From the NCBI GenBank assembly GCA_964016885.1, contig OZ024745.1, positions 69,626,001 to 69,690,000 of the forward strand: 64,000 nucleotides of DNA, given 5' to 3'. Position numbers and translations under genes: made by a program. The notes under the pieces were generated by a model. The model saw nothing but the letters and a program-made list of their open reading frames with translations. It was not told the DNA's origin and did no database searches. This document shows positions 1,594-52,182 of this stretch, piece after piece; the stretch's first letter is position 1, and each line of letters begins with the position of its first letter. This DNA comes from Eledone cirrhosa. Lineage: Eukaryota.

Positions 1594-2255
1594 GGTGGAT
1601 TGGCAGTATCGGTAGAGGGTCGGACGCCATGCTTTCCAGCATAGTTACGTCCCTTTACGATCTGAGTTCAAATCCCGCCGAGGTTGACTTTGCCTTTCAT
1701 CCTTACGGGGTCGATAAAATAAAGTACCAGTAATGCACTGGGTAATTGTTGGCCTTGTGCCTAAAGTAGAAATAATAATAATAATTATTATTATTAGCAG
1801 TAACAGGGGTGGTAGATTGGCAGTATCGGTAGAGGGTCGGACGTCATGCTTTGACGCATAGAGTTACGGCCCTTTCTATTCTGAGTTCAAATCCCGCTGA
1901 GGTCAACTTTGCCTTTCATCCCTACGGTGTCGATGAAATAAAGTACCAGTAATGTACTGTGTAATTGCTGGCCTTGTGCCAAAAGTAGAAACAATTATAA
2001 TAATAATAATAATAATAATAATTATTATTATTATTATTGGATTGGCAGGGGCAGCTGATTGGCAGTATCGGTAGAGCGTCGGGAATATGCGTTGTGATAT
2101 AGAGTTACGGCCCTTTAGGTTCTACATTCAAATCCCGCCGAGGTTAGCTTTGCCTTTCATCCTTACGGGGTCAATAAAATAAAGTACCAGTAATGCACTG
2201 AGATCGATTTAATCAACTCCCCCACCCAAATTGCTGGCCTTGTGCCTATAATAGA
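1594..2255 (+). mobile_element. Three head-to-tail copies of a ~180-bp tRNA-derived SINE (about 1594-1772, 1808-1990, 2048-2255)
   Basis: A-box-like TGGCAGTATCGGTAGAG, B-box GAGTTCAAATCC, central GCCTTTCATCCTTACGGGGTCGATAAAATAAAGTACCAG (resembles Meta/MESC-type SINE core), tail GGCCTTGTGCCTAAAGTAGAAA(TAA)n. Confidence 0.9.
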
Positions 2256-20740: not shown

Positions 20741-22644
20741 ATTAATAATATTTATTTACTAGCCACACAAGGCTCAATAATTATATTAATAATACTATAT
20801 CTTTCACTCCTCACTACGTTTATATTCTTTATAAGGATAGAGTGGAATATACCAATATAAAACTTTGACATACGTCCTCAACAATTTAGTGTGTAAATTA
20901 GTCAATCAGAGAGAATCCCTTAATTAACTCTTACTTATGATTTAAGCAACATGAGAATGAATGTTATAACTTGAAATTAGATCGTAAAAGAAAGTTTCGC
21001 GGTTCCTTGGTCGGCACCCAACCGATTTTATAATTCCGACGCCCTTTATCAGTTTATTGAAGAATATAAACAGTGTCTATGTTAAAGGTAGTTGTGGATT
21101 AAAATTCCGTTTCAGTTTCGCCTGAATTTTTCAGTGGGGAGCATTTGTCTGGGAGAGAGTGCTTTGACCATTGTCTTTGAGAGCAGTAAGAAAAATGGCT
21201 CTTGTTATGGGTTTATATAAATAGTTTAGAGTTGAGAGCAAGAATACAATATTCGGATGGAGGAACTTCCAGAGTGTCGCTCGGAGAAATAAGGACTGGA
21301 CATAGTAATGTATTCAGATGTCCATGCAGGTCTTGTGAATCTGAAAACAATATGAATGATGAGAGGAGTAGAAACAATTGATACTTGTGTGCCGGATTGG
21401 ATGTGGTACGAGAGAAACGTAAACCAAGGAATAGAAATACCTGTAGTAGTGAACGAAAAGAATGAGATGAGATGGGGCGTTAGTATGGAGCAGAGGGTAG
21501 GATGTATTACTGAGTGATTTCGAACTTGCAAAGGAAAAGGTTGGTTCCAATTATAGCAATACATGAAGTCTGTTTCTTCACTGAATTGAAGCCAACTGAA
21601 TCCAATAATACAGTTTGCTTCCCCAGTGAATTATAACATATTATTTGAAGGCATGAATCTCCAAATTCTCTGTATCGAAGCCAATTATGGTAAGGCCAAT
21701 TATGGTACTTCATTGAATTCGAAGCAATTATAAAAGAGCATGAAGTCTACCTCTTCCCTCCATTGGAAACAATTATAGCAGGGCGTGTAGTGTACAAGTT
21801 TCTAAGATCTTAATCAATAATGATATCTCACATTGGCACCTGGCCACATGTCTATCCACCCCTAGTTAATTGGTACTGCATATTTTCTTGAATGCAAAAA
21901 GATGAGATTTAAAACCTTCATCGATGACATTTGAACTCAGAGCGTAATGTGACGTAACTAAACCTGTAGGTTAATTAGTTTAATGGTCTGCTGGTGCTGA
22001 CACATAAACAAAGTTCTCTCGTATTATATAAAATATAACAATATACTACTGTGACAAAGGGAGATTTTTTCCGGTGCTTTAACTATATTGGCATGTATAA
22101 ACGGCAATATATTGAATCAAACGTTTCTTTTTTATTTTAAAGAAAAGTGAGAGAGACGGAGGCGATGAGAGTGGGAGTTCACCTCTGTGTCCGGTCCTGG
22201 TGTAAATATGTGTGTATCTTTACTTATATTCATCTCCTCAAATATAGTGAGAATAACTATCAAAGAAAGAAATGTATTTACTTACGCATATCTATATATT
22301 CTTTAAACCAGGATCATCGCTAGAGTATTTTAATTCAGTGATCTGCTCGATCTGTATTGACTTGGTAACAAGCAGCACCAGCAACAAAGGTATAATATTT
22401 ATTATAGTAGGTGATATAGAGGAGATAGTTGCATATCATCTTCTGATACTACAGAGCAGTATATCGGTTGCAATTTGTTATATATTCAGGTTTTCTACAC
22501 GTAAATATTGTGACGTTCAGATTGCACAATCATCTCGCTTCTCGAGTACCATATGCATTAGGGCTCTGTACTATATTAATCCAGCTATGGATATACAAGG
22601 AAAAATTTTACGTTTTCAGAAAAACTGAAATGCGATGTCCATAT

Positions 22645-22733
<89 letters not shown>

Positions 22734-22737
22734 TTTA

Positions 22738-23240
22738 TTAAAGTACAATAGCTTTCACCGTATTTTTGACTAAAGGAATTTTAGCCTGATAATGGGGTTT
22801 AGAACCCTCAGATAAATGGAAAAGGATGAGTATTGACGTACATGGGAGTCGAACCCACATCTTTGGTTATCGCTACCATTACACCAACACATCACCCATC
22901 TCTTTCCATTCAAATTAGAAGCTACATTCTTAGCGAGTTTAAATGGCAAGTAAGTATGTTTTGAAACAGTGAGCAGGTTTGAAATTAGAAAATAGAATAG
23001 CTTTCACCGTATTTTTGACTAAAGGAATTTTAACCTGATAATGGGGTTTAGAACCCTCAGATAAATGGAAAAAGATGAGTATTGACGTATATGGGAGTCG
23101 AACCCACATCTTTGGTTATCGCGACCACTGTGCTACAATTAGACCAACACATAACCCATCTGTTACCATTCAAATACGGTGAAAGCTATTCTATTTCCTA
23201 ATTTCAAACCTGCTCACTGTTTCAAAACATACTTACTTGA
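22738..23240 (-). mobile_element. 249-bp tandem element with tRNA-like cloverleaf and terminal inverted copy, in (TA)n
   Basis: gctttcaccg at 22751 and 23000; 23174-23240 is an inverted copy of about 22948-23013; relatives at 40918-41212 and 44400-44715. Confidence 0.8.
23083..23153 (-). ncRNA. tRNA-like sequence (Gln-like D arm, non-canonical anticodon loop); second copy with deletion at 22834-22893
   Basis: ATGTGT/ATACGT acceptor, D arm (TGGTGTAATGGTAGC in the 22834 copy), TGGT-CGCGATA-ACCA anticodon arm, GTGGG-TTCGACT-CCCAT T arm, TTTTT 9 nt downstream. Confidence 0.65.
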
Positions 23241-23530
23241 TATATATATATATATATATATATTGAGTATATGTTGGTCGTTTACCGACACCTCAGTAAT
23301 GATTCCAGTATGATTCCAGTTCCTTAGAAGAATGACAACACAACCATGACGTGGACATATCGATGTAGTGACGGAGTAAAACACACTTGAACAACACGTG
23401 TACATGTCTTTCCCACACCAATTCGGACTGCCTCAAGAGGTCACAGCCAATCATTGCTGTCACCGATATATATATAGCAGTATATCTATAATTTTAATAA
23501 ACGAAGCCAAATTTTACATATTTGACTTAA

Positions 23531-23580
<50 letters not shown>

Positions 23581-23780
23581 ATACTTGGGGAGGGTCATAT
23601 TTGTGTAATATTGCCAGAATTAATAACAGAACACACTCACTGTTTGGTTGGTTTTCGCCTCTCGCTTCTGTGTCTTTTATATCGGTAACCTAACTTACTC
23701 GGTCCTCAATGTTGCCATTGACTGACCGACGGTCAAAAATAATACAGATACAATATAGACACAAACACATATATATAGTC

Positions 23781-24152
23781 TGGTGATGTGGGGTTGCATA
23801 GCCTTGATGTAGTCGGCATGCTATCTATTGACATCCTACCAGACTTATCCGTGGGTAGACATACTACCTCACCATCCCTTGTGCGCTGCTTGAGGCTAAC
23901 TAAGCCTTCTACAGGTTTCCTCCCAAGTTGTTGGGCCTCTGGTCTGCTCTGTCTCTTAGTATACCTGTCTACTATTTGTCTAATCTTATTTCTAGCTATG
24001 GTGAATTGTGCCTCTGTCTCGCCATCTATTTGTTGTGGTATGCAAACTCTTTTATTAAAGGGTAACCTCGTAGGATAGATATTACCCATCTTATATGTTT
24101 TGTCAGCTGGGTTGAAAAATAGTTTCTCTAAGGGGTTGTCATTATATCTATC
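23781..24152 (-). pseudogene. Inverted N-terminal segment of the PLE ORF
   Basis: Open frame ending DGEVVCLPTDKSGRMSIDSMP (PLE DKG-type motif), overlapping SIDSMP at the start of the + strand ORF. Confidence 0.85.
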
Positions 24153-26256
24153 GTCAATAGATAGCATGCCGAACTGCATCAAGGCTATGCAACCCCACAT
24201 CACCAACACGAGCGAAATTGCACGACAAACACACGATGGGAGAGAGAAAATCCTCAACGCTTACATGATGATGTGGACTGACATCCTAAAGCCAAGCAGA
24301 CGCACTGCCAACAACTTCCAGGAGTCTAACAATGGCATACCACCCTTGTATGGGCTCCGCAAAGACCACAAGACAGTCGACGACCCGACAACAGGACCAC
24401 CAACAAGACCCGTATGCGGAGCTAATATAGCTAGTAACTACAGGAACTCCTACTTCCTCTCAATGGTTATACGCCCCATAATCAAGATGTCCCCAGATGT
24501 ATGTGACAGTACAGAGGACCTCCTCAGCAGAATCACTGAGTGCAACAAAAACAGGAACCTATCCAACTGCATAATAGGCAGCATGGATGTGGTGTCACTG
24601 TACCCATCCATTAACATTGATTTTGCTGTGAAAAGATGTGTGGAGATGATCATTGAGAGTGAGGTGGTGTTCTGCGACGTCGACACAGACGAACTGGGCC
24701 TCCTACTTAGACTTACCTACGACACTGACTACCTAGACAGCCATGACCTTAGACGTTTCTGCCCTAGTAGACCTATAATAGGTAGACCCTCCACCATAAC
24801 CTCAATGGCACAAAAGACTCCCATGGGAAGGTGGATTGGGTGGACCAAAGCTATACGGACCCCCCAAAACAATGATCAGGTAAGAAAAATGGTCGCACAT
24901 GCAATAGGGGCTAGTATCAAAACTACCCTAAAGGGCCACATATTTAAGTTCAATGAGAAGATCTACACCCAAAATGAGGGAGCAGCCATCGGCGTCAGCA
25001 TAGCTGGTGATGTTGCCAACCTTTTCATGGTATGGTGGGAAAGGAGACTTAAAGATATTCTTAATGAGAGCTCCATAGACATCATCATGTACTCTCGTTA
25101 TGTAGACGATATCAATATAGTTATAAGAACACCCCCACTAGAGAGTACTAACAAGTTTGATTTAGAACGTAGCACGATGGAAAGCATCCAGCAGATAGCT
25201 AATTCCATACACCAGAGTATAACTGTAACTATCGACTTCCCTTCCAAACACCCTAACAATAGACTACCTGTATTAGACACAGAACTCTGGATTAACACTA
25301 TAGACGAGAGAGCCCAAATTCTCCTCTCACACTATGCTAAACCCATGGCCTCCAAATACCTGATACTCAAAAACTCAGCAATGTCCAGTAGTGCTAAGTT
25401 TAATATTCTGATCGCAGATTTGGTACGAGTGATGAAGAATGTGTCCCGCATGTGCGACCCAACAGAAATGGAAATACACATCCAACACTTCATTAACCGC
25501 ATGCAGTTCTCTGGCTACAACCAAAGAGACAGAGTCAGAGTATACGAAGGAGCCATGGAGAAGTATAAGACCCTCATAGAACTGGACATGAAAGGAATTT
25601 GCCCATTATACAGGAGCAAATCATGGAATAGCTTAGATAGGGCTAGACATAAGATAGGAAAAGCCACCTCATGGTACGACAACCAGAGATACCAGAGTGT
25701 CATGTTTGTGGACGCTACCACTGGAGGGAAATTAACTAACCAGTGTAGAAAGGCCCTGAGAAAGACCCACTTCAAAATTAAGGTGGTAGAAAAGCCAGAA
25801 ACCACCATAAAATCCCTGATCAGCAAAACCTACCCTTTTAAGAAAACCCACTGTACCAATAGGAAATGTATCATATGTAAGGTAAACCCCCTGATAAACT
25901 GTAAAACTAGAAACGTAGTTTATAGCATAAGATGTACAGAGGGTACTTGCAGAAACATGACAACAACATACATAGGTGAGACAGCTCGTAGCATAGGTGA
26001 AAGGATAGACCAACACTGGGGGGAACTAAAAGGACGAAAATACGGGTCAGTACTATACGAACATGCTAGACAACAACATGACGGTAACATAGAAAACATA
26101 GAAATTAGAATAATATCTAAACATAGAAATGACCCAGCTGATAGGCAAATCAGAGAGGCCAGTGAAATAGAAATTAGAAGACCAAGACTAAACAGAAAGA
26201 ATGAATGGAATAACAACAACACCCAAACAAACAACACTGACCTAAGAGAAGTATAA
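24100..26256 (+). CDS. Penelope-like reverse transcriptase + C-terminal GIY-YIG endonuclease (5'-truncated; genuine coding sequence starts about 24153; possibly Nematis clade)
   Basis: LYGLRKDHK, RPVC, SMDVVSLYPSI, QNEGAAIG, RYVDD, LPVLD, Cys-rich linker, NVVYSIRC..YIGETARSIGERIDQH..EH; no stops in 718 codons. Confidence 0.95.
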   Translation: MSAGLKNSFSKGLSLYLSSIDSMPNCIKAMQPHITNTSEIARQTHDGREKILNAYMMMWTDILKPSRRTANNFQESNNGIPPLYGLRKDHKTVDDPTTGPPTRPVCGANIASNYRNSYFLSMVIRPIIKMSPDVCDSTEDLLSRITECNKNRNLSNCIIGSMDVVSLYPSINIDFAVKRCVEMIIESEVVFCDVDTDELGLLLRLTYDTDYLDSHDLRRFCPSRPIIGRPSTITSMAQKTPMGRWIGWTKAIRTPQNNDQVRKMVAHAIGASIKTTLKGHIFKFNEKIYTQNEGAAIGVSIAGDVANLFMVWWERRLKDILNESSIDIIMYSRYVDDINIVIRTPPLESTNKFDLERSTMESIQQIANSIHQSITVTIDFPSKHPNNRLPVLDTELWINTIDERAQILLSHYAKPMASKYLILKNSAMSSSAKFNILIADLVRVMKNVSRMCDPTEMEIHIQHFINRMQFSGYNQRDRVRVYEGAMEKYKTLIELDMKGICPLYRSKSWNSLDRARHKIGKATSWYDNQRYQSVMFVDATTGGKLTNQCRKALRKTHFKIKVVEKPETTIKSLISKTYPFKKTHCTNRKCIICKVNPLINCKTRNVVYSIRCTEGTCRNMTTTYIGETARSIGERIDQHWGELKGRKYGSVLYEHARQQHDGNIENIEIRIISKHRNDPADRQIREASEIEIRRPRLNRKNEWNNNNTQTNNTDLREV

Positions 26257-26502
26257 ATAAGTAAATAAAATAAAATAAATAAATAAATAAATAAATAAAT
26301 AAATACATACACAAGCACAATAACAACAAGCACATAAACACACACTAGTCACCCATCACACAGCAAACAAAACACTATACACACACGCAAACGCATGCGC
26401 AAAAAAGACAAAATGAAATAAACAAACAAGCAAATAAATATATAAATATATAGACAGACTGTATAAAAATGGCGTAGACATACAATACAACAGGAGGAAA
26501 AG

Positions 26503-26556
26503 ATAGCACCACTGACGATGTTGCAGATGTGCAACGAAAGATTTATGATAAACTAT
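26503..26556 (+). ncRNA. Minimal type I hammerhead candidate in 3' pLTR
   Basis: ATAGCACCA-CTGACGA-T-GTTGCA-GATG-TGCAAC-GAAA-GATT-TA-TGATAAACTAT; perfect 6-bp stem II, imperfect stem I. Confidence 0.75.
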
Positions 26557-26796
26557 ATATATGTGTTTGTGTCTATATTGAATCTGTATTATTTTTGACC
26601 GTCGGTCAGTCAATGGCAACATTGAGGACCGAGTAAGTTAGATTACCGATATAAAAGACACAGAAGCGAGAAGCGAAAACCAACCAAACAGTGAGTGTAT
26701 TCTGTTATTAATTCTGGCAATATTACACAAATATGACCCTCCTCAAGTATAACAATATTTGTTTCGACACACGATTTCATATAAAAAACCTCGCAA

Positions 26797-26840
<44 letters not shown>

Positions 26841-26929
26841 GTAATATTAACGAGAGTTATTTTACTCATTCACTAGATGTATTTTAGCTCTATGCTATGA
26901 TAAGATCAAGCAGAGCCAGTATACAATTA

Positions 26930-27345
26930 CAGGGAATGTCTCCACGAACCACCTAAATAGAATATTAGTCTACGACTTCACTTATACGATAAACGTGGTT
27001 TTGTCTTTGTGTGCAATTGTTACCACCGCTCCAAATAATGAAGTATTATCTTCGTTCTTTTTCCGTTCTTTGCCAGGGAACATCTCCACGAACCAACGTA
27101 TCGTCTTCCAGTCTTTCTTCGGTTGCAACATTTTTCGAAATATTTACTTCTGCGTTCACACGTTCATAAATAGATTTTTTTTTTAGTTTCAGAAGATCCC
27201 GTTAAGGGTGAAAGCAGCGATTCTTTGCTTAAACCTTAATCTGTTATTTTAATAAATATTTGCTCTAGGCTTCTTAGATATTTGATATATATTTATCCTT
27301 ATCCAGCCCTCTTTGGATTTTAGTCTTCAAATTTATTATTATTAC
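26930..27345 (+). mobile_element. Solo pLTR, family N2
   Basis: Homology to other N2 copies; ends gtcttcaaatttattattattac-(TA)n. Confidence 0.85.
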
Positions 27346-27370
27346 TATATATGTGTGTGTGTGTCTGTGT

Positions 27371-27645
27371 GGAGGCACGTGGCCTAGTGGTAAGTGTGTT
27401 GGACATACGATCATAATGTCGTGTGTTCGATTGGTGGGCTGCGTGTTGTGTTCTTGAGCAAAACAATTCATTTCACGTTGCTCCAGTATACTCAGCTGAA
27501 AATGAGTACCAGCAATAGCTGGACGTTTAACCCTGCGATGGACTGGTGTCCTGTCCAGGGGGGAGTCATGTACTGATAGTCGCTTCACGCCATGAAACCG
27601 GGATAAGCACCGGCCAAATGAGCCTTATGGCTTAAGACAGACTTT
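27371..27645 (+). mobile_element. tRNA-derived SINE with CORE/V-domain-like body
   Basis: TGGCCTAGTGGTAAG A box, GTTCGATT B box, gttgtgttcttgagcaaaac, accctgcgatggactggtgtcctgtccagggggg. Confidence 0.75.
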
Positions 27646-27648
27646 AGA

Positions 27649-27701
<53 letters not shown>

Positions 27702-27788
27702 GTAAGGAATCAGGTGGACCATAACGTTCGGGTCTAGCAGTCGAAACGGCCGGAGCTCAGCCGTCGGGGTCCTGACCTGACTCTCTTT

Positions 27789-27835
<47 letters not shown>

Positions 27836-27838
<3 letters not shown>

Positions 27839-29648
27839 GTAATAATAATAAGTTTGAAGACTAAAATCCAAAGAAGGCTCGATAAGGATAAATGCATATC
27901 AAATATATAAGAACCGTAGAGCAAATTTTTATTAAAATAACAGATTAAAGTTTAAGCAAATAATCGCTGCTTTCACCCTTAACGGGATCTTCTGAAACTA
28001 AAAAAGTCACTTTGTGAACGCAGAAGTAAATATTTCAAAAAACATTGCAACCGAAGGAAGACAGGAAGACGATACTTTGGTTCGTGGAAACGTTCCCTGG
28101 CAAAGAACGGAAAAAAACTAGGATAATACGTCATTATTTGGATCGGTGAAAACAATTACACGCAAAGACAAAACCACGTTTATGGTATAAATGAAGTCGG
28201 GGGCTAATATTCTATTAGGTGGTTCATAGATACGTTCTCTGGCAATGAACGGGAAAAACGAAGATAATACGTCATTATGTTGAGCGGGAAGAACAATTAC
28301 ACGAAAAGACAAAACCACATAAATGGTATAACTGAAGTCGTAGACTTCAATTCTATTTAGGAAACCGAATGAGCCTCGGCTTCAGAGATAATAATAAAGT
28401 AAATAAAATACAGAGGTAATTGAAATTAAATATATACATACACGCATCCATATACGTACATACACAAGCATACGCGAAAACACTCGCCATGTGTATGCAA
28501 ATACAAGCACGTACACAAAAAATCACGCAGAATGTTTGCAGAGGCACGTCAACCAAAATACAAAGTACATATATACACACACCCTACATACGTACGAACG
28601 CGCATACTCACACAGACGCAAAACTCACATACACACATAACCAAATGCACATGTACCAGTATATATAATATATACGCCAATAACAAATACAAGCAAATAT
28701 ACGTACCAGAAAGTATACGTACCTTCACAAAACATACAGGTAATATATACTTACCTATACAAATAAGTAATGGCATAAACATAACATATACTTAGCTACC
28801 ACATCAAGACGTAAAATATCCGCGTATAGATCGTACTGTCCGTTAGGGTATAATGTGGGGTTGTAATACAGGACAGTTTTGTGCAATTTATGTTTACAAG
28901 CCGAAATTACTTGAGATTTTTTGTTTAAGATGTGGTCTTTGGCGTAGATTACTTCCAGATCATCAGTGGCGCAGAGGTTGCAAGGTCTTTTATTTCCGTT
29001 ATACGATCTAGCCTTAGCTAGGATCTCCCAGTGTAACTTATATTGGGCGTGGTTGTCTTTTAGACTCCAGATATAAGCTGAAAGTGACGTCATATTCCTT
29101 CTTAAAGGGTTAAGAAAAGAATGGGTATGCATGTAAAGACGCTGCTTGAATCTATTGGCGGTTAACCCTATATAGGCTGTGTCTGTTTCAACCTTACATT
29201 TGTAGACAATGTTACTAGAGAGGCATTTCCCGGATAGGGGGCAGTCAACTCGATTCCTACAATAACAGTTAGTACTAGCTACAGGGTTGCACGTGTTCCT
29301 AATTTTAATTACCTCTGTATTTTATTTACTTTATTCTTAACTCTGAAGCCGAGGATCATTCTGTTTCCTGAATAGAATTTTAGTCTACGACTTCATTTAT
29401 ACCATAAACGTGGTTTTGTCTTTGCGTGTAATTGTTTTCACCGCTCCAAATAATGACGTATTATATTCGTTTTTTTTCGTTCTTTGCCAGGGAACGTTTA
29501 CACGAACCCAAGTATCGTCTTCCTGTCTTCCTTCGGTTGCAATGTTTTTTGAAATATTTACTTCTGCGTTCACAGATTGACTTTTTAGTTTCAGAAGATC
29601 CCATTAAGGATGAAAGCAGCGATTAGTTGCTTAAACTTTAATCTGTTA

Positions 29649-40917: not shown

Positions 40918-41212
40918 TTTAGGAAGGATATTTTCGAAACAGCGAGCGGGTTTGAAATTATTATAAATGTAAGCTATCGCCGTATTTTGACTAAAGAAAT
41001 TAAAGAAATTATTTAGCTTGATAGTGGGGTTAAGAACCCTCGGAGAAATGGAAAAAGATGAGTATTGACGTACATGGAAGTCGAACCCACATCTTTGGTT
41101 ATCCAGACTCATAAATACTCATCTTTTTCCATTTCTCCGAGGGTTCTTCACTACACTATGAGGCTATATAATTTCTTTAATTTCTTTAGTCAGAATACGG
41201 CGATAGCTTACA
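40918..41212. mobile_element. Fold-back copy of the tRNA-like-bearing family
   Basis: Arms about 40965-41066 and 41115-41212; 3' half of the tRNA-like sequence at the centre. Confidence 0.8.
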
Positions 41213-41229
41213 TATATTATATATATATT

Positions 41230-43342: not shown

Positions 43343-44399
43343 TTATTTTAATAAATATATATATATATAATTCCAATATATGGGAGGCTCCTTATTTACA
43401 TAAAACACTCAAAATAAGCATCGGTCGATTCGTTGAGGACAACATAATAGTATGATAATTATTTTTTTTATTATAAAATCCTATGAAGGTTCATTTGAAG
43501 TCGAGTAACTATGATAAATGATAAGTAGTTTGCTTTGTTTTCTTTAAGTAGAATAAATTAAACTGCCAATCATAATTTCCAGCCGGAAGCCATGATGTGA
43601 ATTATCTCCATGGAGTCGATATATGGTATAAGTATTCAACAAATCGATTCTGTTACATATAACTGTTATGGTTTCTTACTTTATCATTCTCACCTGGCGA
43701 CACTTAAGTATTTACTCAACAGTTTCAAGTCATGGCTATGTTCGGCACACATCGCTGCTTCCTGATGATGGCCTAAAGTGTATTGCAACAATGCTGAAAG
43801 AAAATGATATAAAAAAGAAGTATATACTTCGGACAAGTCAATGTTATGTCTCATCGAGTTCAACTTGTTTCGGGGTCAATAATAGTTTTATCCCTCCAAC
43901 GTCAATATTAAATAGACTGGGTTTCTGGATATCTCAACTATAATTGTTCCTGTTTTTCAGTTAACGAAACAGTCTTCTCATTAGTTAAATTAACGAGTAG
44001 GTGTCATTTAATAACCCCTATAAACGCAACATAATAAATAATGCCCGATAAGACTGGGTCTTTGAATTATGGTACAATATATGGTACAAACCTTTTCCCT
44101 CAATTTGTCTAACAAGGATTCGTTCAATCGACGTCTAACGTAAAGTCCTCTATTTCAAAATAGCAACCAGTGGAATCGAATCCGGCACCTCACATAAACC
44201 ATCCGGTCATGCTGCGTCTAACAAAATAGTTTCGGATGAAGTTGCCTCGCGCAACTTTTTATAGTGCTGTATATGCAGGGTGGGAGATAATATATGATAT
44301 ATAAATTCCGTGATATGATAATTTGGAATATAAGTTAAATACAGAATTGGAACATTTCACTTCTCAGGTAACAACAAAACATAAATTTAAATAAGCAAA

Positions 44400-44715
44400 T
44401 TATAAATGTAAACATGTAAGTATGTTTTTGAAATGTTGCGCGAGTTTGAAAATTAGAAATTAGAAATTATAAGCTTTCACCGACTAAAGACATTTCTAGC
44501 CTGATAGTGGGGTTTATAACCCTCGGAGAAATGGAAAAAGATGAGTGTTGCCGTACATGGGAGTCGAACCCACATCTTTGGTTGAACCAAAGATTCGACT
44601 CCCATGTACGGCAACACTCATCTTTTTCCATTTCTCCGAGGGTTATAAACCCCACTATCAGGCTAGAAATGTTTTTAGTCTAAAATACGGTGAAAGCTTA
44701 TAATTTCTAATTTAT
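44400..44715. mobile_element. Fold-back copy of the tRNA-like-bearing family
   Basis: Arms about 44455-44583 and 44585-44712 centred on ctttggtt-g-aaccaaag. Confidence 0.85.
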
Positions 44716-44924
44716 AATTTATAAATTTAAATATATAAGGTTCAATCAACTAATTTATATAATAAAAACTAGTTCAAGTAATATTTATTCTTAAAGTTAA
44801 TTTCACAAGCAGGCTGTTCCGTGGTTCCAATAATTAGTAAAGCTATCTCTGACATTTTTTTTTGTAAAGTATATCTAAATAACTTCCTCTAATCCTAAGT
44901 ATTGGTAATCAGTATTCATTTCTG

Positions 44925-49995: not shown

Positions 49996-50029
49996 TTATA
50001 TATATATATTTTTTTCATATAAAATTATG

Positions 50030-51410
50030 CCCTTACTCTCTTCAACTCTTCTCCTTCCCTCCTGGTCCCTCCCGCCTTCTCTTTATCCTGTACATCACCC
50101 CTCTCTATACCGTCATCCCTCATGATGACGGCCTCCGCGCTTCTTCAAGATTTTTTAGATTTACGCCCTACCCCTTACTGCAGCACTACCACTCTTCTCC
50201 GTCTGGCTGAGCTTGTTCTCACCCTCAATAGATTTTTTTTTTCGGGTGAATTTTATCAGCAGGTCTCTGGGGTAGCGATGGGAACCAGAATGGGTCCACA
50301 CTATGCCAACTTGTTTGTTGGCTACGTCGAAGCCCAGATCTTCTCTCAGTACGCTGGACCGACTCCTGAGATATACGGTCGTTATATCGACGACTGTATC
50401 GGCGCCACCCCTCTATCACGTGAACAGCTCAACTGTTTTCGTTCTTTTGTCCAATCTTTCCATCTGCTCTCAATTTCCCCGCCTCCGTCTCCGATTCTTC
50501 TGTCGCTTTTCTAGATATCTCTCCCTCTATTAATCTCTCTCACCATACTCTCGCTACTTCCATCTTCATTAAACCAACAGACTCCCAATCTTATCTCGAC
50601 TTCACCTCCTCCCATTCAACCCACACCAAACACTCCATACCCTATTCCCAATTCCTCCGTCTTCGTCAACTTTGTAGCCATAACGACGATTTCGAAACCC
50701 ATTCCCTTCGCATGGCTTCCTACTTCATCCAGCGTGGATATCCGCCCACCCTGGTCCAAGCTGTTCTCACCCTCACCCTTGAAACAGATCGCACCACAAT
50801 CCTCTCACCTCAACCCCACCCGCAACACCCGTGTTCCTTTCCCTCTCATCTACCACCCCATCACCTACCACTCCGGCGAAATATCCTCCGTTCCTTCCGT
50901 ATCCTTTCTTCTGACCCTGTCACTTCTCGCTTTTTTCCAAACACGCCCATTACTGTATTTAAGCGCGCCCGCAACCTCCGAGACCTCCTGGTTCGCAGTT
51001 CCTTTTCGTCCTCTCCCACGACACCACCCGGCTCTCATCCTTGTTCCCGTTCCCGCTGCAACACTTGTCCCTTTATTTCCATCCTCACCACTCTTACAGG
51101 CCCTAACGGGTCTTTCCTTATCCGCCATTCCTTCACCTGCACATCCACCCACGTTGTCTACGCCCTTCGGTGTTCCCTTTGCGGGTCTTTATATATCGGA
51201 AGAACGAGACGCCGTATAGCGGACCGTTTTGCCGAACATTTGAGGGACATACGACTCGGTTTGGATACTCCTGTCGCCCATCATTTCTGTTCTCCTGGTC
51301 ATTCTCGCGCTACATGTTTCAGTCCTGGGTATCCTTTTACATCATGGATCACAGGCCTCGCACACCAGGACTGAACAAAGTCTGATTCACCGCCTTGGGT
51401 CCTATTCCTC
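50030..51410 (+). pseudogene. Frameshifted Penelope-like RT + GIY-YIG (Neptune-like linker)
   Basis: LYTVIPHDDGL, YQQVSGVAMGTRMGPHYANLFVG, RYIDD, KPTDSQSYL, PCSRSRCNTC, VVYALRCSLCGSLYIGRTRRRIADRFAEH. Confidence 0.92.
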
Positions 51411-51708
51411 TCTTGGACAATTTCTCTAATAACCCGACCTTTATCACACCCCTAGATCCCTATCGCTATCTCTTGATCATTAACATCTTCTCTTACAACT
51501 AATACAGGCCGACTATATTTGCTCACTCCACCTTTCCCTTCACTGTACACATACACACCCTTATGTTAACATACTTTTGCCCATAGCTTCGTACTTACAA
51601 GCACACACACTCTTTTAGTCACATGTACATACACATTTCTTCTTAGCTTCGTATGTATGTATAATTAACACACACACACTCACACACACACATACACACA
51701 TACACACA

Positions 51709-51739
<31 letters not shown>

Positions 51740-51756
51740 GCACACACACACCCCCA

Positions 51757-51800
<44 letters not shown>

Positions 51801-52027
51801 CTTACGCACGTGTTCAAGTATAGCTCTTTTTACAAAACGATTTTTTTCCCTTTTCAGGTAGACGCGCTCCATCATCCACTTTTCTAAAAAATAAATTATA
51901 CACAAAACGCCAGCACCAACAGTTTTGCAAGAGATGTCAACATGAATGGACCTGTTATTTTTATCTAAAGACATTTTTTCCAATTCCATCCCGCCCGTCC
52001 CCTCAATGTATCTTATTTCTCATTCTT

Positions 52028-52063
52028 TCTTCTGATGAAAGACTAGCGTCCGAAACATTAAGA
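52028..52063 (+). ncRNA. Minimal hammerhead candidate in the 3' pLTR of the 50030 element
   Basis: TCTT-CTGATGA-AA-GAC-TAGC-GTC-C-GAAA-CA-TT-AAGA; probably decayed from GGAC/GTCC and palindromic ACGT. Confidence 0.7.
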
Positions 52064-52144
52064 CCCTCTTCCTGCTCTATCAAGCGTTAACCTAATATAT
52101 CCCTTCCACATACTGTACAGATTGTGTTATTTATGTTTACCTTT

Positions 52145-52182
<38 letters not shown>

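Follow-up and report, generated by a model that had tools for sequence, protein, structure and literature searches.

A tRNA-bearing mini-element family with Penelope-like insertion architecture in the genome of Eledone cirrhosa

Introduction

Penelope-like elements (PLEs) are, to our knowledge, the least understood class of retrotransposons, and the only parasites of them that we know to have been described are hammerhead retrozymes and internally deleted copies. Here we describe a non-coding mini-element from a 64,000-nucleotide stretch of the genome of Eledone cirrhosa (assembly GCA_964016885.1, contig OZ024745.1, positions 69,626,001 to 69,690,000, forward strand), which is referred to below as the window and whose own numbering is used for all coordinates unless a different locus is named. 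The mini-element at 22741-23239 belongs to an abundant family in which a tRNA-like cloverleaf is conserved and in which the insertions have the architecture of PLE insertions. An earlier annotation of the window, termed here the first-pass annotation, had suggested a non-autonomous element mobilized by a PLE, and the insertion architecture agrees with that suggestion. We propose that the family is a tRNA-bearing non-autonomous retroelement that depends on a PLE for its mobility, a reading to which we give a probability of roughly 70% and which is based on architecture rather than on a demonstrated partner.

Insertions of endonuclease-bearing PLEs show a high degree of 5′ truncation, form partial tandems, are accompanied by an adjacent inverted and 5′-truncated copy, often have a tail of 30-40 bp at one end only and frequently use (TA)n as their target, according to the available portions of Craig et al. 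(2021; PMC8557442), in which cysteine and GIY-YIG-type C-terminal motifs belong to the description of PLEs and in which non-autonomous Chlamys elements are described as head-to-tail copies having 3′ ends in common with autonomous families. The PLE protein of the anole cleaves and extends both DNA strands in vitro, and reverse transcription starts at two adjacent internal sites, the interval between which is the tail; RNA on the 3′ side of the start region is required, namely the first 172 nt after it, and the main substrate is unprocessed multimeric RNA, ribozyme mutants being inserted normally (Frangieh et al., 2024; PMC11167929). The mini-element is like these PLE insertions in its 5′ truncation, its partial or multiple tandems, its inverted 5′-truncated neighbor copy, its (TA)n or AT-rich targets and a tail, some tens of bases long and confined to one end, which would correspond to two alternative start sites of reverse transcription, and it is like the non-autonomous Chlamys forms in its head-to-tail copies. 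Unlike PLEs, it has no open reading frame (ORF) and it carries a cloverleaf on a long helix.

The second group of systems for comparison is the animal retrozymes without long terminal repeats (non-LTR retrozymes), whose units are non-coding tandem repeats of 150-450 bp in the part available of Cervera and de la Pena (2020; PMC7229834). What that paper and the accessible text of Li, Clavereau and Pollet (2026; 10.64898/2026.07.22.740005) describe is matched by the mini-element in its low-GC non-coding tandem units, which range from dimers to long arrays, in a proposed mobilization by PLEs and in one compact structured RNA module per unit. Unlike the retrozymes, the mini-element lacks a type I hammerhead and has a tRNA-like cloverleaf instead, and it is known here from DNA alone.

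With tRNA-derived short interspersed nuclear elements (SINEs) the family shares a tRNA module with a box A-like motif and box B at which some copies start, and it is likewise short, non-coding, divided into subfamilies and present in thousands of copies; it differs from them in its PLE-type signature, in the leader upstream of the tRNA, in the T5 run behind it, in its tandem copies and in that most of its copies are two-armed. The mascRNA of MALAT1 is an example of a tRNA-like processing signal within a long transcript. The cloverleaf of the mini-element would similarly be embedded in a longer RNA, the ends of which could be set by cleavage with RNase P or RNase Z, the difference being that mascRNA belongs to a single host gene and the module described here to a mobile element. 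No description of tRNA-bearing elements with PLE-type insertions was found in the open full-text literature, subscription journals and Repbase entries being outside the search. A 2026 repeat annotation of the octopus, in the part of it that was available, lists many unclassified SINEs and PLEs and does not link them to each other.

The Window Copy and Its Family

The window is AT-rich eukaryotic DNA (34% GC) within a 3.0-Gb assembly, and (TA)n runs of at least 8 nt make up ~4.8% of its bases. The first-pass annotation had described repeated 249-bp units and a terminal inverted copy at 22738-23240, a layout that is borne out by a repeat search of the window. A direct repeat of 139 nt (22740-22878 and 22989-23127, 96% identity, spacing 249) is continued by a second one of 44 nt (22872-22915 and 23132-23175, 89%, spacing 260), and there are inverted arms of 75 nt (22940-23014 and 23172-23246, 95%). 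The spacing of 249 is therefore present, but comparison with 260-nt genomic units showed that 260 nt is the unit length of the family and that the shorter value results from an 11-nt deletion in the tRNA-like part of one unit. The window copy is a two-armed insertion of ~500 bases with (AT)n runs on both flanks, and its parts are as follows.

22641-22738: (AT)n microsatellite, left flank, target
22741-23171, minus strand: long arm, 1.7 units of subfamily A (unit positions ~32-260, then 1-~220), locus L001
23172-23239, plus strand: short inverted arm of 68 nt (unit positions 193-260), ending at 3′ site 2 with (AT)n directly after it
23240-23264: (AT)n microsatellite, right flank, target

In the numbering of units, the most distal 3′ end is taken as the last position. 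The 3′ end of the long arm, which is on the left in window coordinates near 22741, lies beside (AT)n at 3′ site 1, and two tRNA-like modules are found inside this arm. The tail of the window copy is the 37-50 nt between sites 1 and 2 and is present at the end of the short arm only.

Three subfamilies are distinguished, with units of 260 nt (A, represented by the window copy at 22741-23239), 291 nt (B) and 271 nt (C). Genome searches with the three copies from the window gave at least 2377 (A), 1377 (B) and 1505 (C) first-look candidates, numbers that are lower bounds and of which 40 were scored in each search, and the abundance of the family is far above chance. The two relatives that had been placed at 40918-41212 and 44400-44715 in the first-pass annotation are real, with slightly different limits.

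40921-41219: subfamily C copy, two-armed, between (AT)n runs, locus L094; minus-strand arm on the left extending from site 2 as far as unit position 82, plus-strand arm on the right extending from unit position 124 as far as site 1
44392-44720: subfamily B copy, two-armed, locus L061; arms from site 2 and from site 1, both stopping at unit position 92 in the anticodon stem

The B copy is a near-perfect fold-back with its center on the anticodon stem, and the arms of the C copy end at the anticodon stem and at the 3′ end of the tRNA.

Insertion Signature

The signature of the family was determined from 124 distinct insertions that were parsed from five sets of loci. Long queries were used to find three of these sets, in which long copies are overrepresented; for the other two only the last 60 nt of subfamilies B and C served as the query, which leaves them without bias in 5′ extent, the unbiased sample of 5′ ends thus comprising B and C only. 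Over the 124 insertions the outer 3′ ends fall within two narrow intervals, while the 5′ ends are spread over the unit, the majority of copies being truncated at the 5′ end. The distal interval, site 2, is at unit position 260 in A, 290/291 in B and 267-271 in C, and the proximal one, site 1, is at 210-223, 224-233 and 228-235, respectively, the tail between them being 37-50 nt (A), 57-67 nt (B) and ~36-43 nt (C) in length.

Two arms are present in 78 of the 124 insertions and in all 78 the tails point outward and the 5′ ends meet in the middle. Site 1 at one end is paired with site 2 at the other in 60 of the 78 two-armed copies. Symmetric pairs occur only twice (2/78; one site 2/site 2 and one site 1/site 1), and the others combine site 2 with an irregular end (14), site 1 with an irregular end (one) or two irregular ends (one). 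The 46 single-armed copies (46/124) end at site 2 in 39 cases and at site 1 in seven. Because single-armed copies mostly end at site 2 while the ends of two-armed copies are split between the sites, the asymmetry does not come from an independent choice of the two ends. The asymmetry of sites 1 and 2 is the signature described for PLEs as a tail at one end.

The insertions are also closely associated with (TA)n. A run of (TA)4 or longer is found within 24 nt of at least one end in 122 of 124 insertions and of both ends in 87 of 124, as compared with 6% of random window positions and 12% of positions drawn at random from the outer regions of these loci. When copies were collected by their tails, 35 of 49 (71%) were two-armed and 10 of 49 were longer than one unit. 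The window copy fits the family signature exactly, and the statement in the first-pass annotation that it has the same architecture as the PLE insertions in the window is supported, including for the PLE that lies 330 bp away (see below).

The tRNA-Like Module and Conserved RNA Structure

The tRNA-like module is readily recognized in the family. ARAGORN called a 73-nt tRNA in 26 of 27 subfamily A loci (35 calls, of which 31 were labeled 'Ser cga') and, in a check on the family consensus that the first-pass annotation had proposed, a tRNA of 73-74 nt in each of the three subfamily consensus sequences, which are majority sequences built per subfamily for comparison between subfamilies. The Rfam tRNA model gave 31-43 bits in six of six units from four genomic loci. 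A cloverleaf of ~71 nt had been proposed for the window copy itself and, while the family copies pass ARAGORN and Rfam, the two modules in the window are decayed and stay below the Rfam threshold.

23083-23153, minus strand: tRNA-like cloverleaf of the 5′-proximal unit, decayed; Rfam tRNA 26.5 bits, threshold 29
22834-22893, minus strand: tRNA-like module of the 3′-proximal unit; Rfam 22.5 bits; the 11-nt deletion removes the 5′ strand of the anticodon stem

ARAGORN called no tRNA in the whole window, and Rfam at the gathering score reported nothing at the window copy. No hammerhead was among the Rfam matches either at E up to 10 for window 22600-27000 or at E up to 1 for the four genomic loci, in keeping with the idea that a tRNA mimic stands here where other families use a hammerhead.

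The module is labeled Ser (cga or gga) by ARAGORN, yet it is drawn with only a short variable region, and the anticodon loop of subfamily A has a G at the place of the expected U33. A tRNA-Ser requires a long variable arm. Since the module has a 'Ser' anticodon and lacks this arm, it is a tRNA look-alike rather than a working tRNA gene. In the unit consensus sequences, box B fits the standard consensus motif and a box A-like motif is present.

The 3′ half of the 50-nt leader, the cloverleaf (A 53-125), hairpins of 5 bp and 7 bp and both strands of a longer-range helix are kept across subfamilies A, B and C, and an 18-nt trailer block that includes the T5 run is identical in all three consensus sequences, with T5 located 9 nt behind the cloverleaf in each subfamily. 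The first 25 nt of the leader, the area around the proximal 3′ site (site 1) and the tail vary between subfamilies. The cloverleaf is thus retained in three diverged subfamilies, which disposes of the possibility, allowed for earlier, that it is not conserved, and the two conserved hairpins that had been noted are present in all three. The strands and hairpins of the window copy are located as follows, helix numbers referring to the structure alignment described below.

22895-22910, minus strand: leader strand of the leader/trailer helix, 3′-proximal unit; a mutated counterpart lies in the other unit at 23155-23170
22815-22830, minus strand: trailer strand of the leader/trailer helix; the T run is T4 here and T5 in the other unit at 23064-23079
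22795-22807, minus strand: conserved hairpin 1 (helix 6), 5-bp stem and 3-nt loop; core pairs in 21 of 21 sequences
22768-22786, minus strand: conserved hairpin 2 (helix 7), 7-bp stem; 96.8% of cells paired
22966-23010, minus strand: long-range helix 3 (helix 9), 7+2 bp, enclosing 3′ site 1; U-A in 14 sequences and C-G in seven

The leader (A 35-52) and the trailer (A 128-145, with T5) are complementary over 16-18 bp, and the helix that they form stacks beneath the 8-bp acceptor stem across a 3-nt bulge. It is seen in the minimum-free-energy fold of a natural A copy (-41.1 kcal/mol, z -3.7). Pairing of leader with trailer has a duplex energy of -27.0 kcal/mol in A, -20.2 kcal/mol in C and -17.2 kcal/mol in B, and shuffled trailers do as well in 0 (A), 5 (C) and 59 (B) of 2000 cases. 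An alignment of 21 natural units, seven per subfamily, has standard pairs in 90.6% of the cells of the whole proposed structure against 41-48% when the 3′ partners are slid by 1-3 columns, a control in which the proposed structure is favored by having been derived from subfamily A. The structures are conserved rather than proven by covariation. A bulge-helix-bulge motif for the tRNA splicing endonuclease was considered and rejected, only one 3-nt bulge being present.

These results make the proposal of a terminated RNA polymerase III (Pol III) cassette an incomplete one. The T run behind the cloverleaf is conserved, as this proposal has it, but the T5 is also the 3′ strand of a 16-18-bp helix, and the existence of multi-unit copies shows that templates read through it.

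As a separate observation, an older fourth subfamily, ~70% identical and with a different tail, was noticed at L092 (reverse strand 1-540) and at L058 245-408, again two-armed in (TA)n. It could supply the covariation that is lacking in the three young subfamilies.

5′ Ends and Fold-Back Points

Where the arms begin was assessed in two kinds of sample. The B and C copies found with long queries had to reach only the anticodon in order to be picked, and 14 of the 74 arm 5′ ends in these two samples fall within -3 to +2 of the cloverleaf start, with a mode 1-2 nt upstream of it, where an even spread would give ~1.6 of 74 by our own arithmetic (6 of ~270 positions x 74). Examples are single-armed copies that begin with G-T-G-A-T-G directly after (TA)n and one two-armed copy of which both arms stop at the cloverleaf start. 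The tail-seeded samples have none of 84 arm ends at this position and 35 of 84 at tRNA nt 61-73, and a further 13 of 84 were reported at nt 43, most of which represent the same join over-extended by BLAST. The joins are located on short palindromes, which are CATG/GTAC at the border of T stem and acceptor and TCGA in the T loop. In subfamily A, 8 of 44 arm ends cluster within the trailer strand, 5-9 nt past the cloverleaf. A stop of the reverse transcriptase at a modified T-loop base (1-methyladenosine 58, m1A58) was rejected as the cause of the main 5′-end peak, which lies 5 nt further 3′ on the CATG/GTAC palindrome.

The fold-back of the two relatives in the window was previously placed at or beside the anticodon arm; in the family the points are not specific to this arm, and they vary, coincide with short palindromes and are mostly in the T arm. 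It had also been foreseen that the copies might mostly be ordinary SINEs starting at the tRNA; such cloverleaf-start copies are a minority (14/74, and 0/84 in the tail-seeded samples). The description of the tRNA as internal, unlike the head of a SINE, is correct for multi-unit copies, which have the leader upstream of it, but must be qualified for the minority class that starts 1-2 nt upstream of the cloverleaf. A minority of syntheses would extend into the upstream unit, and the templates would accordingly comprise RNAs with a start ahead of the tRNA in which T5 is passed one or more times. As to the copies that start at the cloverleaf, they would do so because the RNA begins there, for which initiation by Pol III is the leading candidate at less than even odds, a cut by RNase P and some other cause being each a rather weaker possibility.

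Tandem Copies and a 38-Unit Array

Multi-unit copies of 1.2 to ~4 units occur, and one array is much longer. This subfamily C array consists of 38 units over 10.3 kb (G000:C4:264915694-264925977; loci L174, L139, L138, L137 and L175), is flanked by (TA)n runs and has its end at site 1. The mean identity of its units is ~87% at most lags, and there are near-identical blocks at lags of 7 and 9 units (96-98.5%). The shared variant patterns and these blocks show block duplication at the DNA level, so that the array was rejected as the product of a single rolling-circle event, and it looks like a retroelement-seeded satellite in the making.

Neighboring PLEs and Candidate Partners

The PLE closest to the window copy is a member of an autonomous family designated PLE-A.

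23573-26799, plus strand: 5′-truncated PLE-A copy with an ORF at 24079-26256, flanked by (TA)n runs, 330 bp beyond the right end of the mini-element

This copy has an inverted arm of 207 nt (23573-23779 versus 26552-26758, 98% identity) and a 41-nt tail at its right end only. At 29 further PLE-A loci the 3′ end is at a proximal site in 18, at a distal site 41 nt beyond it in nine and elsewhere in two. Full-length PLE-A copies are tandems of 4132-nt units with a 1217-aa ORF, and the distal 3′ end lies inside the ORF of the next unit. A 199-aa query gave 38,457 first-look candidates, of which 150 were scored and all were 95-100% identical in amino acid sequence; the family is extremely abundant and young.

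The identity of PLE-A as a PLE rests on look-alikes in the protein atlas, on motifs in the translation and on architecture. The atlas clusters of its look-alikes carry HTH_animal, DUF8422, RVT_1 and GIY-YIG, and the translation contains a YVDD motif together with C-terminal cysteine and GIY...YIG-like motifs. Pfam gave a weak RVT_1 match for the 725-aa ORF and nothing for the 1217-aa ORF, and a PDB sequence search with the protein returned nothing useful. The best named homolog is an octopus hypothetical protein with a reverse-transcriptase domain (67% identity).

As a check that the first-pass annotation had proposed, copies linked to a PLE ORF were sought by collecting ORFs of at least 180 aa in 140 mini-element loci, and only unrelated PLE fragments were found nearby, in the same microsatellite. 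An AC-rich stretch just before the distal site occurs in both PLE-A and the mini-element and is given no weight.

Further PLE-like ORFs were observed within a few hundred bases of mini-elements, in microsatellites common to both, at L069 (1849-3179), L096 (2089-2673), L062 (2110-2862), L080 (2388-3176) and L023 (2440-3255). Those in L069, L096, L062 and L080 have 27-29% identity with the two window PLE families, and that in L023 matched neither. All five are candidates for the missing partner. The second PLE family of the window, which is unrelated to PLE-A, is represented by an older fragment at 50023-52150 (plus strand) with a YIDD motif and a weak GIY-YIG match in Pfam; (AC)n follows it and its end is near an (AT)n run.

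Discussion

The architecture of the insertions would be explained if multimeric and unit-length RNAs of the mini-element are reverse-transcribed by target-primed synthesis with the enzyme of a PLE. On each of the two cleaved DNA strands, synthesis would begin at one or the other of two internal sites, as it does for the anole PLE in vitro. In a multimeric RNA the tRNA-like fold would follow the start sites at a distance of 35-145 nt, which is where the RNA-binding region required by the anole PLE is situated, and it may also recruit the PLE enzyme. The folded module would in addition be a roadblock at which most syntheses stop or switch strand by microhomology at short palindromes. Those that pass it would often reach the true 5′ end of the RNA just before the cloverleaf, and a minority would continue into the upstream unit.

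Several observations weigh against this scheme. The signature is architectural, and mobilization by a PLE is deduced from it. A BLAST search with 7-nt words and E up to 1 found no similarity between the unit and the two PLE families of the window, 30 PLE-A loci or three full-length PLE-A copies, so the earlier suggestion that the mini-element is a PLE pseudo-long terminal repeat (pLTR) does not fit, the unit being unlike both window families and the full-length copies in sequence. Described non-autonomous PLE derivatives share 3′ ends with their partners, as far as the available text goes (Craig et al., 2021; PMC8557442), and in this the mini-element, which has no 3′ end in common with the PLEs compared here, is unlike them. 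It is similarly unlike the Xenopus retrozymes, which resemble PLE pLTRs in sequence in what was accessible of Li, Clavereau and Pollet (2026; 10.64898/2026.07.22.740005), as the family does not resemble the PLEs examined. No chimeric insertion of a mini-element arm and a PLE arm was seen in ~140 loci, and in five of five cases of adjacency the two are separated by 60-84 nt, mostly of (TA)n. The sampled loci are the best-scoring matches of each search rather than random draws. The leader/trailer helix appears in the fold of a natural B copy, but this fold is not better than those of shuffled sequences (z -1.0), and the helix has an uncompensated mismatch in B and C. Covariation is thin, with one compensatory pair in 63 and variation that is almost all one-sided; the single compensatory change, in the long-range helix enclosing site 1, is U-A in A and B and C-G in C. 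Finally, the class of 5′ ends at the cloverleaf is compatible with initiation by Pol III as well as with cleavage by RNase P and does not discriminate between them, and the bases before the cloverleaf are G, which may be templated or possibly untemplated additions.

How the tRNA-like module would serve such an element is a question on which two further proposals bear. One, which is compatible with mobilization by a PLE as proposed above and to which we would assign somewhat less than one chance in three, is that the fold is an RNA handle bound by the PLE protein rather than a promoter or a processing site, its likeness to tRNA being due to descent. In a tandem RNA the helix and cloverleaf are located at +35 to +145 after 3′ site 2, within the span of the first 172 nt needed by the anole PLE (PMC11167929); conservation within the unit is highest in the 3′ half of the leader, the cloverleaf and the trailer, with variation in the tail and the site-1 region, and the T run is kept as a helix strand. 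A handle would not, however, account for the monomers that start at the cloverleaf, which show that the RNA often begins there, since a pure handle needs no such start, and PLE-A has neither a tRNA-like fold nor a similar sequence at the matching place. The other proposal, which we consider unlikely, is an analog of retrozymes. Multimeric transcripts would be cut once per unit by RNase P at the tRNA-like module, the ends would be held by the leader/trailer helix and acceptor stem and ligated, and the reverse transcriptase of a PLE would run round the circle and so give tandem copies. The tandem units of 260-291 nt are in the size range of the animal non-LTR retrozymes, as given in the available part of PMC7229834, and are combined with a PLE-type signature; there are copies of 2-4 units and the 38-unit array that ends at site 1 between (TA)n runs; a cut at the 5′ end of the cloverleaf would leave a nick within a continuous helix, and there is a class of 5′ ends at that position. 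The modal 5′ end, however, is 1-2 nt upstream of the cloverleaf and not at +1, and the array, with its block duplications at lags 7 and 9, was not made in one shot. RNase P leaves a 5′-phosphate and a 3′-OH, ends which RtcB does not join and which would therefore be unsuited to it. RtcB is the ligase shown to circularize retrozymes (PMC7229834, in the text available), and the anole PLE uses mainly unprocessed RNA and inserts ribozyme mutants normally (PMC11167929). A class of 'tRNA-retrozymes', in which a tRNA-like module replaces the hammerhead, host RNase P and perhaps a ligase cut and close the unit RNA, held together by the leader/trailer helix, and a PLE copies it, perhaps in repeated rounds, into (TA)n, is put forward as a doubtful possibility of the same low order.

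Two explanations that dispense with a PLE are much less probable. An ordinary tRNA-derived SINE, transcribed by Pol III from the A and B boxes and mobilized by a long interspersed nuclear element (LINE), with inverted arms arising by twin priming, has in its favor that box B fits the consensus and an A-box-like motif is present, that the 5′ ends of one class of copies lie 1-2 nt ahead of the cloverleaf and that the two arms are collinear with one RNA and have a short overlap, as in twin priming. We nevertheless regard it as improbable. The mini-element has no A-rich or simple-repeat tail of its own, in contrast to the SINE at 1594-2004 of the window with its (AAT)n end, and the site 1/site 2 asymmetry of 60/78 two-armed copies is not predicted by LINE twin priming. 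The T5 run that follows the cloverleaf at a distance of 9 nt in each subfamily, the conserved 50-nt leader upstream of the tRNA in multi-unit copies and the two arms of 71% of tail-seeded copies (35/49) are likewise at odds with it. A LINE-type 3′ end was not seen, two discrete 3′ ends being found instead, and a LINE partner was not searched for genome-wide. Least probable is an element that moves as DNA, whether as a transposon of the fold-back type or a miniature inverted-repeat transposable element (MITE), or as a satellite spread by recombination within microsatellites. Palindromic copies such as that at 44392-44720 do look like long terminal inverted repeats, and the 10.3-kb array grew partly by block duplication, but the termini are asymmetric (site 1 opposite site 2 in 60/78), the inner junctions differ from copy to copy and single-armed 5′-truncated copies with a fixed 3′ end are common (46/124). 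Asymmetric termini, variable inner junctions and fixed 3′ ends are the hallmarks of reverse transcription that begins at a fixed 3′ position.

If the family is mobilized by a PLE, it would show that PLE enzymes are open to being hijacked by way of RNA structure, or of RNA processing by the host, instead of by sequence held in common. The mini-element would also provide a small natural template (~260 nt) for an in vitro assay of PLE insertion with which recognition by the enzyme could be probed, and a direct test of the purpose of the ribozyme in other families, as the tRNA-like module would have the corresponding role here. The family also accounts for part of the association of (TA)n microsatellites with repeats in this genome, and its copies would be mis-annotated by standard pipelines as SINEs, MITEs or satellites.

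Other Repeats in the Window

The SINE used above for comparison occurs among trinucleotide microsatellites as two adjacent, ordinary-looking copies at 1594-2004 (plus strand), in each of which a conserved body lies between a tRNA-related head and an (AAT)n tail. It is also found beside mini-element copies at other loci (L101). A further non-coding repeat is present at 26952-28361 as two convergent copies of ~400 nt around (TA)n/(TG)n. Its arms, at 26956-27352 and 27832-28361, are 82-94% identical, and one of them contains a 141-bp tandem duplication (28078-28340).

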